DNA of 64,000 bases from Nannocystis bainbridge. GTDB taxonomy: Bacteria > Myxococcota_A > Polyangia > Nannocystales > Nannocystaceae. Positions 2,788 to 63,870 of this stretch are shown here, piece after piece. The notes beneath the pieces are model-generated. The model saw only the letters and a program-made list of their open reading frames with translations, made no database searches and was not told the DNA's origin. The stretch spans positions 4,032,001 to 4,096,000 of the forward strand of contig NZ_JAQNDL010000001.1 in NCBI RefSeq assembly GCF_028368995.1, written 5' to 3'. The translations under genes and the position numbers were made by a program. Each line of letters starts with the position of its first letter. Within the stretch, counting starts at the first letter, position 1.

Positions 2788-2831
2788 GTGTCCCCAAGGA
2801 CATGCCCCTCCGCGCATGTCCTTTCAGCCAT
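2788..2831. repeat. 14-bp-period array of the TGTC-N6-GACA motif (3 units) at a convergent gene junction
   Basis: Units at 2788 GTGTC cccaag GACAT, 2802 ATGCC cctccg CGCAT, 2816 ATGTC ctttca GCCAT. Confidence 0.75.
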
Positions 2832-4535
2832 CTATGCGCTCCTGCGCCCGACGCGGACCGCCGCCGCCGCGCGGCGGATCGTCTCGCCCTCCGCCCGCCC
2901 GACTCCGTAGGCCGCGAACGTCGCGCGATCGATCGCTGCGAGGTCTGCGGGCGCTGCCGCGACCAGCGCGGCCCGGGCCTTCGCCGGCACCTCGGCCCAC
3001 GACGGCACCCGGATCCGCCGCAGGTACTGGGCCTGGAACCGCAAGAACCCGCCGGCCATCCGGATCCCGTAGTTGGCCACGAACAGCGTCGCCAGCGACG
3101 AGCGCAGGATCGTCGCCAGCGCTTGCAGGTCCCACGTCGGCGACGTCACGTGATAGAGGTTGTGGTGCGGATAATAGTCGCCCGCGTCGTAAGCGACCGT
3201 CGCCTCGCCCTTGATGTCGGGGATCAGCAGCTTGGGCGTGCGCGCCAGCGCAGGGTCGATGCGATCGATCGTCCGGTACCACGCCTCCGGGCTGCGGCGA
3301 GCCACGTAGCGCCGCTGCAGCGCCTCGCGGTGCGCATGCACGTAGGCCGCGAAGCGCGGATAACGGCCGGTCTCCGCCAGCGCCCCGTCCGCCTCGAACG
3401 GATTGACGATCCCGCGGCCGCCCCACGCGATCGTGCCCCCGCGCAGGTCGGCCGCCATCACCAGCGGCAGCTTGCGCGCCGGCTCCACCGGCAGCCCCGA
3501 ATAATCGCCGACGAACACCCGATCGGCGCCCGTCGCCACCCCGATCCCGACCCGACAATCGGTGTCCTCGAGCGTCCTGAACTCGCCCTCGAGCCGGCGC
3601 AGCACCGCGAGCTGATCGGCGCCGTCTAGCAGCCACGGGTCCTCGCCGCGGACCGCCTGCGCCACCACCTCGACCCGCGGATCGTCGACCGGGTCCGCGC
3701 GGATCATCGCCTGCACCACCGCCGGCAGCTCGCCCGCGATCTGCGGCCTGCGGGCGATCCGCGTCAGCTCGCCCGCACCGCGACGGATCACCGTGATCGC
3801 CGGATACGCGAACACCTCCGACTGGAACGCGTCCGTCCCCTCCATGTCGATGTAATGCGAGAGGTGATAGTCGCGCGCCACCAGCCCGCGCAGCGGCCCC
3901 CCGTAGCGGTTCTTCAGCCACCGATTGGCGCAGATGAACGCCAGCCGCCCGTCATCCGCGAGCAATTGCAGCCCGCGCTCGAAGAACGGCACGTAGAGGT
4001 CGGCCCGATCGTAGATGGTATGATAGCGCCGGCGATATTCTACGAGCAGGGCCTCGGGGATCCGCTCCTGCCGCACGTACGGCGGGTTGCCGACCACGAC
4101 CTCGAATTTCTCGGTCAGCGGCGCCAGCAAAAAGTCGCCGCGGATCAGCCACGCATCGCACAGCCGGCTCACCTCGCGGCTGCTCGCGCCCCACTCGTGC
4201 AGCCGCGCCCGCACCCGCTCGCGCGTCCGCTCGAACGACTCCGCGTGCACCTCGACCCCGCGCACCGTCGACTCGAGCCGACGCGCCTGCTCCGGTCCCA
4301 GCCCCGTGCGCGCGCACGCGGCCAGCAGCCGCTCGACGATCGCCATGATGAACTCGCCCGCGCCGAACGACGGCTCGAGCACCGACCACTGCTGCAGCGG
4401 CTGGTCGGCCGTATAGCCCGCCAGGTCGAGCATCGCCTCGACCACCTCGGGCCGCGTGAACACGGCCCCGCGCTCGCTCGCATCGGCCCCGACGAGGCCG
4501 GGTCGGGGCGCGTGGGGCTCGAGCGACGACTGCAC
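2832..4535 (-). CDS. N6-adenine DNA methyltransferase, gamma class (Eco57I/TaqI-like; M.PaeR7I/M.XhoI-like)
   Basis: [20 protein letters not shown] (SAM binding), GNPPYVR (catalytic), [10 protein letters not shown]-terminal TRD with PKLLIPDIK; start uncertain. Confidence 0.9.
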
Positions 4536-4694
4536 GGGCGCGCCGAGCTTAGCGCGTCCGTGCCCGCGTGCGCTGCGCTCGCCGGCCGCAATTCATCGAC
4601 CTCGCCGCGCGATGCCACGGCCCACCCCGGCAGCGATGCACCGATCTGCGCTCGCGGCCCCCGCCGACCCTCGCGGTCCTACACTCCGCCCGCG

Positions 4695-5654
4695 ATGCCG
4701 CCGCGCCTCGACTACTCCCGGCAATGCGCCGAGCTCGAGAAGATCGCACGCCTCGAGCCGCGCCCCGCCGCCCCCTCCGACCCTGCTGCGGGTCTCGCCG
4801 CCCCCTCGCCCGCCGCCACCTGCCTCGTGTGCGACGCCGGCCCCGCCCGCCCGTGCGACCGCTGCGGCGGCGTCGCCTACTGCGGCGACGAGCACCGCCG
4901 GCTCGACCTGCGCTGGCACGCCCCGGTCTGCCCCGCGCTGCGGGCGATCGCCGACGACCTCGCCTTCTTCGCCGCCCATGCGCGCCCCTGGCTCGAAGCC
5001 CGGCTCCTCGCCCGCGCCGGTCGGACCGCCGCCCTTCCCACCTCCTGGGACGCCTGGCTCGGCCCCGACCTCGCGCCCGTCGAGCGCCGTTGCCTCAGCG
5101 ACCTCGCCACCCGGCCGCTGACGCTCGCTCACCTCCTCGGCTTGCTCTCCGAACATGTCCCGAAGGACATCTCGAATCCCACCGCGATCCACGTCATCGC
5201 CGCCGCCCAGCGCGAGCGCGACGTCTCGCCGGCGCTGTGGCGCGAGCTCGAGCGCCTGCACCCCGACCGTCGCTTCGCCATCACTCTCATCGGCCCCGAG
5301 CTCGCGCCCGGCGACCTCGGACCGGGCGTGCGTGCCGTGACGGCCCTCTATCGGCGCGACCTGTGGCCCGCGCTCGGGCGCCCCGACCTCGTCATCGGTT
5401 ACGACTGCGGCCTCCTCCTCTATCCCACGTGGAAGCCGACCATGCACGACCTGCGCGGCTCGGGCGTCCCGTTCGCGCTCACCAGCTATCGCGCCTGGGA
5501 GGCCGCCGGCGAGGCCCGCCTGTTGCGGGCGATCGGCGCCGAACCGCTGCTCGCCCCCACGCCCAACCCGTTCGCCTCGCTCTCGGCCCGCCGCTCGTCC
5601 ACCCTCGCCAACGACCTCGCCCACGACAACGCATTCATGAGCGCCTGGCGCTGA
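4695..5654 (+). CDS. MYND zinc-finger protein with MSS51-like C-terminal domain
   Basis: CLVC..CDRC...YCGDEH..WH...C MYND pattern; HVIAA, LIGPEL, PDLVIGYDCG, TSY..EA, NPFAS motifs; real start inside the 3855 ORF. Confidence 0.75.
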   Translation: MPPRLDYSRQCAELEKIARLEPRPAAPSDPAAGLAAPSPAATCLVCDAGPARPCDRCGGVAYCGDEHRRLDLRWHAPVCPALRAIADDLAFFAAHARPWLEARLLARAGRTAALPTSWDAWLGPDLAPVERRCLSDLATRPLTLAHLLGLLSEHVPKDISNPTAIHVIAAAQRERDVSPALWRELERLHPDRRFAITLIGPELAPGDLGPGVRAVTALYRRDLWPALGRPDLVIGYDCGLLLYPTWKPTMHDLRGSGVPFALTSYRAWEAAGEARLLRAIGAEPLLAPTPNPFASLSARRSSTLANDLAHDNAFMSAWR

Positions 5655-5674
5655 CCCGCAACGCCACGCCCGCG

Positions 5675-62500: not shown

Positions 62501-62909
62501 CGCCCTCGAGACCCTGCGCGACGTCGGCCTCGGCTACGTCACCCTCGGCCAGAGCGCGCTGACGCTGTCGGGCGGCGAGGCCCAGCGCATCAAGCTGGCC
62601 AAGGAGCTGGCCAAGAAGAGCACCGGCAAGACGCTCTTCATCCTCGACGAGCCGACCACCGGCCTCCACTTCGGCGACATCAAGCAGCTGCTCAAGGTGC
62701 TCGAGCGCCTGGTCGACGAGGGCAACACCGTCGTCGTCATCGAGCACAACCTCGACGTCATCAAGTGCGCCGACTGGGTCGTCGACATCGGCCCCGAGGG
62801 CGGCGAGCGCGGCGGCAGGCTGCTGGCCGCCGGCTCGCCGCAGCAGGTCGCCAGGGTCAAAGAGAGCGCCACCGGCCACTACCTGGCGCGCGTCCTCGGC
62901 ATGGCGTAA
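59532..62909 (+). CDS. uvrA: Excinuclease ABC subunit A with long low-complexity N-terminal extension
   Basis: GARTHNL, two GSGKSSL Walker A motifs, two LSGGEAQRI signatures, zinc fingers. Confidence 0.95.
59850..59925 (+). repeat. 36-bp coding tandem repeat ([12 protein letters not shown] x2) in the UvrA tail
   Basis: GACGCGAAAGCCTCGAAGCCCGCCACGACCCCGACC twice. Confidence 0.85.
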
Positions 62910-62958
62910 AGAGCATGTCCGACGGGGCATGTCGCCGAGGACATCCCCTGTGGGCCAC
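62901..62958. repeat. 14-bp-period motif array (4 units) at the uvrA/hcp convergent junction
   Basis: Units at 62901, 62915, 62929 (ATGTC gccgag GACAT) and 62943. Confidence 0.8.
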
Positions 62959-62959
62959 G

Positions 62960-63523
62960 TCACCGCTTGACGTTGTGCTTCTCCCAGTCATCCGAGGCGG
63001 TGACGTTGCCGTCGCGCCAGATCCACTCGATCTTCTGGTAGGTCAGGCTGACCTCCTGCACGACCTGGTCGTTCGGCCCCGGCAGCAGGCGGATCGCGGC
63101 GATGCTGGCGTTCGTCAGCTTGACCGTGTACGTCAGCGTCTCCGCCCCCTTGGCGTCCGGCCCGAACACGTTGAGCTCGACCGACGTCAGCAGCTCGTTG
63201 TCGAGGAACGCCTGCTGGATCGTCGGCGTCGCCTTGCCCAGCTCCATCGTCAACACCAGCGGCTTGTGCTGGCGCCTGCCGGTCGCCAGGCCCGAGGCCG
63301 CGTCGCGCGGCATGCTGACCTCGTGGTCCAGCGAGAGGATCGCGATCATGTTCTCGCGGCCCTTCTTCACCACGCTGCCCTTGATGTCCCCGACCTTCTG
63401 GCCCTTCATCCGCAGGTAGGCGTTGAGCGCCGCCTCGGCCTCCGCGAACGGGGCGAGCGCCACCCCCGACACACACGCCACCAGCGCCAGCGAACGCAAC
63501 AGCTGCTTGCTCGACATCGACAT
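62960..63523 (-). CDS. hcp: Hcp/TssD-family tube protein with N-terminal signal peptide
   Basis: [64 protein letters not shown]. Confidence 0.85.
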
Positions 63524-63870
63524 CGTGCTCCTGCGCGACGAACCCTCGCGCGCGAGGCAAGGTACCGCGGATCGTTCACCCACCGCACGCACGCGGGCGA
63601 GCGCGCCGGCGCGCTACGCATAGTTCACGCGCGATGTCGCGGCGGTGCGCTCGCCTCATGCGCTGGGGGCTGCGAGTGACGGGCCGAGCGTAGCAATGAG
63701 CGCCTGCTCGTCACGACATGTCACAATGGACACATCGATCACACATGTCCTTTGGATCATGTCGACAACGCGCCGGCGGCCCCATGGGGCCCCATGGGGC
63801 CGCCCCGTGGCCGAAGCTTCATGCCGGCCCGCCTGACCGCGGCGGTGGCTGAATCTCCACGACAAAATTG

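Follow-up and report, generated by a model that had tools for sequence, protein, structure and literature searches.

REP elements are short palindromes of high copy number that are species- or genus-specific and combine conserved stems with variable centres, and their clusters are almost all extragenic, lying past stop codons or between convergent genes, with a tandem arrangement and a size that varies among relatives, as set out in the part of a published account that bears on this family (PMC3733652). The palindromes in the 64,000-nt stretch of Nannocystis DNA analysed here (the window) are like the REP and BIME elements of Enterobacteria and Pseudomonas, with their RAYT transposases, in copy number, placement, stems, tandem clustering and size change. 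They differ in having a unit of just 18 bp with overlap through CATG and a strict 14-bp period, in the enrichment of single sites in genes, and in that no GTAG or CGTC end tag, no evidence of RAYT and no pairing signal past the conserved letters is observed. The family is closest to REP/BIME in genomic behaviour, without their defining sequence features, and no description of it was found in the searchable literature.

The matS (MatP), NBS (Noc), SBS (SlmA) and parS (ParB) sites are palindromes of 12-16 bp that are read by dimers and also lie in genes, in sets of tens of sites that are confined to a chromosome region and positionally stable. The Nannocystis palindrome is likewise spread over the chromosome, genes included, and the chromosome-wide occurrence proposed in the initial annotation is seen over the full length of chromosomes of 11-13 Mb in several Nannocystis genomes (a partial sample); the resemblance to matS, Noc/SlmA sites and parS that it also proposed is poor, with about one palindrome per 2.7 kb (thousands of sites, by extrapolation) and phased arrays in post-gene gaps that turn over quickly. 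The repressors MetJ, Fur and omega polymerise cooperatively on tandem boxes (8-bp met-boxes, hexamer arrays and heptads), which, as in the Nannocystis arrays, are short, abut at a fixed period and vary in number; because the period does not correspond to an integral number of turns, proteins bound to such boxes wind around the DNA. Those arrays lie in the promoters of defined regulons, whereas the Nannocystis arrays are found across the genome at the ends of genes. Neisseria dRS3/NIME and DUS and cyanobacterial HIP1 are lineage-specific short motifs with hundreds to thousands of copies, partly in inverted pairs after genes, whose function was long unclear. The Nannocystis motif is similarly lineage-specific, hyper-abundant and partly arranged in inverted post-gene pairs, but we know of none among them whose units overlap at a constant 14-bp step, and HIP1 and DUS differ from it in being common in genes, in proportion to coding density. 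By the account of the initial annotation, the MrpC site (TGTYN8RAC) is 2 bp longer than the palindrome.

The recurrence of the palindrome is real and far above chance level. The unit is CATGYCC-N4-GGRCATG (18 bp), and in the window TGTC-N6-GACA has 13 matches vs 0.97 expected (sd 1.01, maximum 5, 100 dinucleotide shuffles), while TGTCC-N4-GGACA with at most one mismatch has 23 sites vs 1.59 expected, or about one palindrome per 2.7-2.8 kb with coding sites included. Enrichment of inverted half-sites is confined to N4, with N3 and N5 at background, and direct ATGTCC is enriched solely at 14 bp (14 vs 0.2 in the window, 34 vs 0.2 in the flanks). Spacing between CATG copies peaks only at 14, 28 and 42: the window has 14 pairs at 14 (CATG-N10-CATG; about 0.68-0.8 expected), two at 13 and one at 15, with six at 28 and four at 42, where 0.84-0.94 are expected from an order-3 Markov model. 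Since adjacent units have CATG in common, they form arrays with a 14-bp period, of 2-7 units whose terminal CATG is common to neighbours. The unit logo reads C-A-T-G-Y-C-C-n-n-n-n-G-G-R; some 60-70% of unforced units carry GG, and the same holds for CC.

The twelve near-perfect copies reported in the initial annotation are all present, with coordinates that precede the first T of TGTC by one base; the corrected starts are 2789, 5156, 13726, 15679, 20670, 21833, 36945, 36973, 43012, 55027, 62930 and 63719, and a thirteenth TGTC-N6-GACA match, absent from that list, is at 42669. Its estimate of more than 20 loci at about one per 3 kb agrees with the 23 sites (one per 2.8 kb or so), and the 14-bp steps through CATG that it described are borne out by the spacing peak and by 14 CATG-N10-CATG pairs against 0.68 expected. 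The degenerate copies fare unevenly: those at 19727-19775, 41030-41101, 46771-46861 and 52177 are real phased arrays, to which 62900-62945 and 63718-63775 are added as confirmed, and other listed copies are weaker, with 38334, 46036 and 51495 being palindromes with one or two mismatches and 30571, 38303, 52402, 59521 and 61284 lone half-sites or coding, each of which could be chance. The elements are listed in Table 1.

Table 1. Palindromes and phased arrays in the window (gene strand in brackets).
Coordinates	Element	Context	Further observations
2789..2828	array; one full palindrome TGTCC-N4-GGACA and two more CATG units, 14-bp steps	fills 60-bp gap from M28 peptidase stop (2771, +) to Eco57I-like methylase stop (2832, -)	RNA fold z -4.7
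5154..5171	lone 18-bp palindrome CATGTCC-CGAA-GGACAT	coding, within zf-MYND/MSS51_C gene	
13724..13741	lone palindrome	coding, ribonucleotide reductase gene (-)	several codons across palindrome end in A or T
15677..15694	lone palindrome	5 nt past stop of gene 15697-16560 (-)	about 55 nt upstream of promoter-like site preceding cobalamin riboswitch and RNR gene
19723..19781	array; four CATG units, 14-bp steps (19726, 19740, 19754, 19768)	covers TGA stop of gene 18560-19735 (+); ends 13 nt before GDPD stop (19794, -)	
20668..20685	lone palindrome, one mismatch	5' part of GDPD gene, right after predicted lipoprotein signal	
21831..21848	lone palindrome	divergent gap, LysR-type regulator gene (-) / 2123-aa gene (+)	
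36943..36990	palindrome pair in register, 28 bp apart	within oxoprolinase gene	reading frame normal; 8 of 19 codons end in A or T; gene GC3 0.94
41030..41101	best array; four CATG units, 14-bp steps (41043-41085), 32-bp perfect palindrome included	occupies gap from lgt stop (40987, +) to PD40-repeat gene stop (41106, -)	RNA fold -51.7 kcal/mol, z -5.5; TRF period 14
42667..42684	lone exact palindrome	within DUF4112 gene	
43010..43027	lone palindrome	across ATG start (43026, -) of DUF4112 gene	
46767..46861	two two-unit elements (CATG 46770/46784, 46831/46845)	directly 3' of FG-GAP gene stop (46863, -)	first element (46767-46790) is best hairpin-plus-T match of consensus terminator scan
52173..52204	two-unit element	divergent gap, gene 50857-52056 (-) / PA14 gene (52395, +)	
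55025..55042	palindrome inside longer perfect inverted repeat	3' of stop of gene 53456-55009 (+)	RNA fold -34.7 kcal/mol, z -5.6
62900..62945	array; three CATG units and terminal palindrome	covers TAA stop of uvrA-like gene (62909, +); ends 15 nt before hcp stop (62960, -)	
63716..63775	palindrome and two-unit element	5' of hcp start, no coding signal there	

The arrays are almost confined to short gaps past stop codons, with convergent gene pairs as the commonest setting. At 51 array loci, with genes called by a GC3 heuristic that leaves at least one flank uncalled at 28, the 23 loci with both flanks called include 13 convergent, 10 tandem and no divergent arrangements; among called upstream genes 27 of 34 terminate before the array, among called downstream genes 30 of 35 terminate after it, and the distance from array to stop is often 0-27 nt. 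When the matches are placed on the window gene map, 13 of the 14 CATG-N10-CATG pairs are outside genes, although the restriction to gene ends is not strict, as two window elements (21831 and 52173) lie in divergent gaps. Single sites are also over-represented inside genes, which points to selection on the DNA itself: set against synonymous-codon shuffles, the kind of background that the initial annotation called for, 31 genes totalling 47.6 kb contain four exact sites vs 0.15 and 13 with at most one mismatch vs 3.07 (shuffle maximum 6 in 100 runs). The flanking genes are ordinary and diverse (138 ORFs), so that the motif set is not a regulon.

The motif system is lineage-specific and fills Nannocystis and Nannocystaceae genomes. 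An array scan covering 185,579 species genomes gave at least 96 matches, and among the matches listed 64 of 96 are from Nannocystis or Nannocystaceae, in at least nine assemblies, with the other 32 being mostly plain tandem duplications. An independent replicate comes from Nannocystaceae sequence (176 kb) that does not belong to the ascertained arrays, where CATG copies are spaced at 14 in 29 pairs, at 13 in one and at 15 in four, and TGTCC-N4-GGACA (at most one mismatch) occurs 69 times vs 2.4 expected. Between species, cores and spacing persist and spacers change fast: in three pairs of orthologous arrays (13 units) mismatches number 4/39 at positions 5-7, 19/52 at positions 8-11, 9/39 at positions 12-14 and 0/52 in CATG, a count biased by locus selection, which forces CATG in 9 of the 13 units; the flanks have third-codon-phase mismatch of 5-19%. 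An unascertained ortholog pair retains ACATGTCC-N7-ACATGTC, and the rest of its gap aligns poorly. Arrays also gain or lose whole 14-bp units between relatives; one is expanded and remodelled although its flanks are about 95% identical (L017 vs L073), and a 345-bp indel between close relatives is packed with palindromes. REP clusters or minisatellites show such instability more typically than conserved binding sites do. The varied spacers that the initial annotation took as a sign of conserved half-sites rather than a copied repeat are found, the commonest 7-nt spacer occurring just five times among 260 junctions, but spacers are shared between arrays at about twice the expected level (31 vs 12.7, column shuffle); this excess, together with the common spacer sequence of the window arrays at 2801 and 19726 (29 of 34 bases, counted on the sequences), indicates that some copying occurs.

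Recurrence at about 3 kb, 14-base phasing after genes and the same pattern in Nannocystis genomes make this a candidate genome-wide recognition site. The reading that we tentatively prefer, giving it a little under an even chance, is a lineage-specific site with REP/BIME-like genomic behaviour that is read as duplex DNA by a putative dimeric protein. On this reading a candidate lineage-specific DNA-binding protein would recognise the double-stranded site as a symmetric dimer. Each 14 bp would carry one dimer in contact with the next, and the row of dimers would wind around the helix, about four turns of which make up 42 bp; at gene ends the arrays might then either block read-through transcription or serve as a docking site for a nucleoid or topology factor. 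Recognition of duplex DNA is suggested by the rigid geometry and the absence of covariation, and a symmetric dimer would fit the rigid palindrome, 14-bp phasing, kept cores with free spacers, lack of covariation and in-gene excess, so that the interpretation in the initial annotation, a putative dimeric protein that would oligomerise along DNA, is partly supported. Counted against duplex recognition are the stable hairpins, array instability, excess spacer sharing and the two divergent-gap elements, and a copied hairpin family read by an enzyme would likewise be expected to lack covariation.

The main rival is a hairpin-based REP-like element, in which the palindromes work as single-stranded DNA or RNA stem-loops, whether as bidirectional factor-independent terminators and mRNA 3'-end protectors or as substrates that an enzyme specific for hairpins, for example a RAYT-type Y1 transposase, would copy, and the arrays would be the counterparts of BIME clusters. 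Extragenic arrays past stop codons and chiefly in convergent gaps, kept stems around a variable 4-nt centre, restriction to the genus, array expansion, contraction and indels between close relatives and modestly raised spacer sharing are all as this would have it, and four of ten window elements form very stable hairpins (z -4.1 to -5.6). The element at 46767-46790 also provides the top hairpin-plus-T match, apart from which classical terminators are at chance level, with 9 vs 5.0 and 7 vs 6.6 in shuffles for two scans. Pairing across N4, however, is not in excess: all three extra Watson-Crick pairs are present in 33 of 260 junctions vs 32.9 in shuffles, covariation sought across the same junctions gave per-pair counts at shuffle level, and the full 7-bp stem occurs in only about 13% of junctions. 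A hairpin needs two cores, yet even unit numbers are not favoured (3, 4, 5, 6 and 7 units in 23, 15, 19, 5 and 1 ascertained arrays), and the direct-repeat array 19740-19781 folds no better than its shuffles (z -1.6). The loop stays at exactly four nt across diverged copies, and sites are in excess inside genes, where terminators would do harm. The sequences read have no GTAG or CGTC tag, and there are no transposases among the 138 flanking ORFs, the latter being a result of little weight, as a genome has few RAYT genes. We regard such an element as a serious but on balance unlikely explanation.

It is improbable that the arrays are a selfish or neutral micro-satellite, with self-complementary GGRCATGYCC driving slippage and template switching and arrays persisting, without host function or dedicated protein, in the sole dispensable DNA, the post-gene gaps. 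Some arrays do have identical adjacent units (L017, L086 and L095), higher-order repeats of 14 and 42 bp are present, close relatives differ by remodelling, and arrays can occupy a whole stop-to-stop gap. Slippage would copy the spacers too, yet most are unique; cores and exact spacing are retained while spacers diverge by 37%, isolated in-gene sites exceed the synonymous shuffle, and at least nine assemblies have the same core.

Ordinary transcription factor operators governing a regulon, of a PadR-, CRP/FNR- or Xre-type dimer, are most improbable. PadR-family operators are inverted repeats of ATGT/ACAT with a spacer of 8-10 nt, as given in the portion of one report that treats them (PMC3506622), and C-ATGT-CC-N4-GG-ACAT-G has the same outer tetranucleotides at 8-nt spacing, matching the ATGT-N8-ACAT outline; a few sites also lie upstream of genes (15677, 21831, 43010 and 52173). 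Unlike the Nannocystis motif, PadR operators are single promoter sites of few genes, no PadR gene is among the window ORFs scanned, the extrapolated site number is in the thousands, no fully called locus is divergent and convergent stops flank the majority of arrays, the 138 flanking ORFs have no common function, and arrays are unstable between relatives. The outline match may be taken as a lead to the fold of the reader, not as evidence of one.

A DNA uptake signal like Neisseria DUS or Pasteurellaceae USS, favoured by a competence receptor and secondarily placed in inverted pairs after genes, would account for a genus-specific motif of this abundance that occurs both in genes and in such pairs, but is equally far from probable: phased pairs are strongly intergenic, we know of no DUS or USS counterpart to phased arrays of up to seven units, and what is enriched is the N4 pair and the 14-bp phasing rather than the heptamer, CATGTCC alone being about 2-fold over an order-4 Markov expectation (32 vs 16.8 and 79 vs 43.7).

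The palindromic element is far more frequent in the window (64 kb, GC content about 70%) than composition predicts. The twelve near-perfect copies of TGTC-N6-GACA listed in the initial annotation are all real, and with a thirteenth at 42669 there are 13 where dinucleotide shuffles give 0.97; the longer form TGTCC-N4-GGACA occurs 23 times with up to one mismatch against 1.59 expected, approximately one per 2.8 kb. The exact 14-bp steps between CATG tetranucleotides reported at the same time are equally robust, with 14 pairs versus 0.68 expected (0.84 under an order-3 Markov model) and only two pairs at 13 bp and one at 15 bp; at 28 bp and 42 bp there are six and four pairs, respectively, compared to about 0.9 expected. 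Chance and base composition are excluded by the dinucleotide shuffles, by order-3 and order-4 Markov models, and by a synonymous-codon shuffle.

The 32 CATGTCC heptamers on the two window strands are followed by C at +14 in 29 instances and A at +15 in 21, and by G at +11 and at +12 in 20 each, so that nearly every CATGTCC sits within a larger CATGTCC-N4-GGnCA(TG). The unit is an 18-bp palindrome, CATGYCC-N4-GGRCATG, with the terminal CATG common to adjacent units of an array, and an array can equally be read as the self-complementary decamer GGRCATGYCC every 14 bp. In the window, inverted half-sites are enriched at a 4-nt centre only (23 vs 1.1; 0–4 each at all other spacings from 0 to 12), and direct ATGTCC repeats at 14 bp only (14 vs 0.2).

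All but one of the window's 14 phased CATG pairs are extragenic, with matches placed by hand on the gene map, and the gaps and stop codons concerned are listed in the table. The same placement was assessed in 51 Nannocystaceae loci of 4 kb, including one duplicate, with genes called by a GC3 heuristic. Both flanks are called in 23 of these, and the flanking genes are convergent in 13, tandem in ten (five per direction), and divergent in none. By the same heuristic, the upstream gene stops ahead of the array in 27 of the 34 cases called, and the end of the downstream gene lies beyond it in 30 of 35; array-to-stop gaps are frequently 0–27 nt, and the arrays show no preferred orientation relative to transcription across the 51 loci. 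The 138 flanking ORFs form an ordinary, diverse set (e.g. tyrS, gyrB, hisD, ddl, uvrC, rpiA, kinases, and hydrolases), with no transposase among them.

Positions of the palindromic elements relative to genes, and of other features, in the window
Feature	Position	Strand	Remarks
Arrays filling convergent stop-stop gaps	2771/2832, 19735/19794, 40987/41106, 62909/62960		From the window gene map
Palindrome after a stop	Stop at 55009		
Other elements after stops	Stops at 15697 and 46863		
Elements in divergent gaps	21831 and 52173		
Restriction-modification genes	265–1536 and 2832–4535	−, −	HsdR_N-domain protein; Eco57I-like methylase with TaqI_C specificity domain
zf-MYND finger and MSS51_C domain protein	About 4821–5654	+	Adjoins the restriction-modification genes
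ISL3-family transposase gene	9612–10853		
Repeats on either side of the ISL3 gene	8191–8341 and 11244–11375		70-bp (2.2 copies, 97% matches) and 62-bp (2.2 copies, 91% matches)
Ribonucleotide reductase gene	12756–15185		ATP-cone and large subunit domains
Cobalamin riboswitch	15388–15601	−	109.5 bits
Promoter-like TTGACG-17-TATATT	15624–15596	−	Just 5' of the riboswitch
ORF of 2123 aa	21821–28192	+	GC3 0.94, no Pfam match
Region of lower GC content	About 28200–35900		GC 0.66–0.67; little or no GC3 coding signal at about 30.7–33.9 kb; histone-deacetylase-domain gene at right edge
Tandem repeats, 36- to 42-bp	59812–59943		2.5–3.3 copies, in the 5' part of a uvrA-like gene (1125 aa)

Single palindromes are also present within genes. 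A set of 31 well-supported genes (47.6 kb) has four exact sites versus 0.15 after synonymous-codon shuffling, and 13 sites with up to one mismatch versus 3.07 (maximum of six in 100 shuffles). The two palindromes at 36943–36990 lie in an oxoprolinase gene whose frame is intact, with eight of the 19 codons there ending in A or T versus a GC3 of 0.94 for the gene; an in-frame insertion is rejected, the translation being continuous and native-looking.

A scan of species-representative genomes with an oriented three-unit pattern returned at least 96 matching stretches. Among the matches listed, 64 of 96 belong to Nannocystis or Nannocystaceae (N. punicea FL3, N. exedens DSM 71, N. pusilla Na p29, N. 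radixulma, strain RBIL2, and four MAGs), and these loci contain arrays of 3–7 CATG units with dissimilar spacers; the logo of units not forced by the pattern reads C-A-T-G-Y-C-C-n-n-n-n-G-G-R. The other 32 listed are single matches in unrelated taxa, where the tandem duplication is mostly perfect and extends to the spacers; judged by their sequence, most are ordinary tandem repeats that include the heptamer by coincidence. The sole listed match outside Nannocystaceae with variable spacers (L042, 1966–2040, in a Bacillota MAG of 40% GC) has three CATGTCC units and a perfect CATGTCC-CCTT-GGACATG directly 5' of a spoIID gene, and is probably a sporulation operator unrelated to the Nannocystaceae arrays. 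None of the 96 loci listed overlaps the window, with no blastn match at 1e-20 and only distant paralogues by tblastn. The motif system in common, the 70% GC content, and the myxobacterial genes point to Nannocystaceae as the family to which the window belongs.

The sequences flanking the Nannocystaceae loci (176 kb), which were not selected for the motif, provide an independent replicate. CATG pairs are spaced at 14 bp in 29 instances, at 13 bp in one, and at 15 bp in four, and TGTCC-N4-GGACA with up to one mismatch is found on average every 2.6 kb (69 sites versus 2.4 expected). At 11–13 Mb in the records matched here, Nannocystis genomes rank with the largest of bacteria, and by extrapolation each would contain several thousand sites; in N. 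punicea FL3 the matches listed extend from 0.17 to 10.5 Mb, and in RBIL2 they are spread over both large contigs.

Strand runs of the listed pattern matches were surveyed on RBIL2 ctg0F and ctg1F, N. pusilla contig_2, N. punicea FL3, and N. exedens utg0. Some chromosomes have long single-strand blocks, such as seven plus and then two minus matches on RBIL2 ctg0F, and six of seven plus up to 5.7 Mb followed by six of six minus on N. pusilla contig_2; N. exedens utg0 is without such blocks. They may reflect a replichore-linked bias for T versus C beside CATG. An array polarity tied to replication was considered and not adopted: the first 80 matches suggested uniformity within each replichore, and the full 64 Nannocystis or Nannocystaceae matches listed are mixed. 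The mixed strands, together with the opposite strands on which the oriented pattern lies in the two genomes sharing one orthologous array (L007 and L008) and the near-symmetry of the unbiased unit, indicate that orientation is weakly defined, and we conclude nothing from it.

Four orthologous pairs are found among the listed loci, three of which align unit for unit (13 units), with third-codon-phase mismatches of 5–19% in their flanks. Within these units CATG has no mismatches in 52 positions, a conservation figure biased by locus finding, which fixed CATG in nine of the 13 units and leaves the fast spacers unaffected; mismatches number 4/39 at positions 5–7, 19/52 at positions 8–11, and 9/39 at positions 12–14. 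In an unascertained pair, ACATGTCC-N7-ACATGTC is kept in an otherwise poorly alignable gap with five of seven spacer bases changed. The gaps at about 930–1040 in L007 and about 2960–3420 in L008 differ by ~345 bp between flanks that are ~95% identical, and the additional 345 bp is rich in TGTCYC-N4-GRGACA palindromes, among which the sub-variant TGTCTCTCGGG(A/C)CA recurs several times. Its variants are also present in the window (TGTCTCTCCGGACA at 20670 and TGTCTCTCGGGACA at 43012), and sub-families with a preferred centre seem to exist. Identical 7-nt spacers are common to different arrays more often than expected (31 vs 12.7), and copying therefore exists as a minor process. The arrays do not fit an ordinary tandem repeat (minisatellite), as the units are not alike over their full length and the spacers differ; divergence outside the core is too great for Tandem Repeats Finder to report more than two of the arrays.

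The reading that we rank first, and hold tentatively, is that these are a lineage-specific family of sites recognised by a protein and acting at the ends of genes. A symmetric dimer would bind duplex DNA, one per 14 bp, with three steps (42 bp) corresponding to about four helical turns, a relationship pointed out in the initial annotation with which we agree. Sequence-specific recognition with a fixed geometry, for which such a dimer would be the simplest explanation, is suggested by the use of one set of letters at all sites, spacing that stays fixed despite spacer drift, the enrichment within genes, and the lack of either a pairing signal or a parity preference.

The last two observations bear on a hairpin-based element of the REP type, which we rank second and regard as rather doubtful. 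Four of ten window elements do have very stable predicted folds (z of −4.1 or below), among them 41025–41105 (−51.7 kcal/mol, z −5.5) and 55015–55055 (−34.7 kcal/mol, z −5.6), with five others between −1.4 and −2.4 and one at +0.2. However, all three pairs flanking N4, giving a full 7-bp stem, are present at 33 of 260 junctions versus 32.9 after shuffling, and the per-pair complementarity across N4 at these junctions does not exceed that of shuffles with or without G-U pairs. With two cores per hairpin, even numbers of units are predicted, but the Nannocystaceae arrays listed show no even-number preference.

In genomic behaviour the elements do match REP/BIME sequences: they follow stop codons, avoid divergent gaps, have neighbours without a common function, and turn over fast. 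They are similarly of high copy number, extragenic (as are 13 of the 14 phased pairs), and situated after genes or between convergent ones. REP stem-loops are formed by imperfect palindromes of about 20–40 nt; the unit here is 18 nt, and folds are stable in four of ten elements and comparable to those of shuffles in the remaining six. RAYT genes, which encode the Y1 transposases associated with REPs, number few per genome, and none of the 138 ORFs flanking the arrays codes for a transposase. The GTAG or CGTC tag at one end of a REP, described in PMC3733652, is not apparent by eye in the aligned arrays, which end in CATG. With no such tag apparent and no clear requirement for a stem-loop, the elements are filed among dispersed extragenic palindromes and not as members of the REP family.

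A functionless repeat driven by slippage is improbable. Expansion is seen in the fourth orthologous pair (L017/L073, flanks 91–95% identical), one of whose arrays has grown into repeats of 14 and 42 bp. A DNA uptake signal is very unlikely, as DUS and USS are single short motifs strongly over-represented alone, both within genes and outside them, whereas here it is the half-site pair at fixed spacing that is enriched 20- to 30-fold and the heptamer on its own exceeds an order-4 Markov model only about 2-fold.

We give equally little credence to a set of regulon operators, since the placement after stops, the avoidance of divergent gaps, the quick turnover, and the flanking genes without a common function all argue against it. 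The consensus CATGTCC-N4-GGACATG contains ATGT-N8-ACAT and so has the same outline as the ATGT-N8-10-ACAT inverted repeats of PadR-family operators, as given in PMC3506622. PadR operators lie in promoters, beside or controlled by a padR gene, whereas the arrays follow stop codons, and a PadR domain is found in none of the 39 window ORFs or 138 locus ORFs scanned; the outline is a lead, not evidence, as to the kind of protein that would read the sites. The initial annotation's likening of the system to matS or parS fits poorly with the same post-stop placement, divergent-gap avoidance, and quick turnover. In matS, NBS, SBS, and parS systems there are tens of sites in one chromosome region (Ter, ori-proximal, or non-Ter), compared to about one per 2.8 kb across the window, and to our knowledge the motif is none of the MatP, Noc, SlmA, or ParB consensus sequences.

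Intrinsic terminators are composed of a GC-rich hairpin and a T run. A consensus terminator scan of 40 kb picks up only two of the elements, at 46767–46790 (the best match) and 42669–42682, and its totals do not rise above those of shuffles (9 vs 5.0 and 7 vs 6.6). A more specific form of the reading ranked first, one that we consider unlikely, is that a lineage-specific dimeric protein occupies CATGYCC-N4-GGRCATG, one dimer per 14 bp, and forms a short helical filament on the arrays at gene ends. There the filament would block read-through transcription from both sides, act as a supercoil barrier, or do both, and the single sites within genes would be low-occupancy nucleoid-structuring sites. 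With classical terminators at chance level in the scanned part of this 70% GC genome, such a filament would largely take their place.

The element is not described in the literature searched, in which the motif strings retrieve p53 papers only, and nothing relevant was retrieved for Nannocystis with repeat, palindrome, intergenic, or terminator, or for Myxococc* with repetitive extragenic. Look-ups in two REP surveys return no mention of Myxococc, Nannocystis, or Deltaproteobacteria (PMC12306157), or of Myxococc, Sorangium, Haliangium, Stigmatella, or Anaeromyxobacter (PMC3733652).

If the sites are read by a protein, the defined 14-bp register and natural arrays of 2–7 units offer an experimental handle, and the system bears on DNA organisation between convergent genes and on how transcription ends there in a very GC-rich bacterium without recognisable intrinsic terminators. 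If they are instead hairpin elements, they make up a REP-type family whose overlapping architecture is unusual, in a phylum for which we found no such family described, and could serve in strain typing and in understanding the origin of such repeats. In either case annotation pipelines should mask or label the element, because ATG repeats and palindromes after stop codons can mislead the prediction of start codons and terminators.

The gene content of the window is typical of a myxobacterium, including genes coding for a Ser/Thr kinase, FG-GAP and DUF4215 proteins, a T6SS Hcp, and a zf-MYND protein, the last of which has two domains (zf-MYND and MSS51_C) that are mostly eukaryotic. No known RNA family coincides with the arrays in Rfam, the only match in the window being the cobalamin riboswitch of the ribonucleotide reductase leader, and there are no tRNA genes in the window. 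The region of lower GC content may be acquired or decaying DNA, and the tandem repeats in the uvrA-like gene make the N-terminal extension of its product repetitive.
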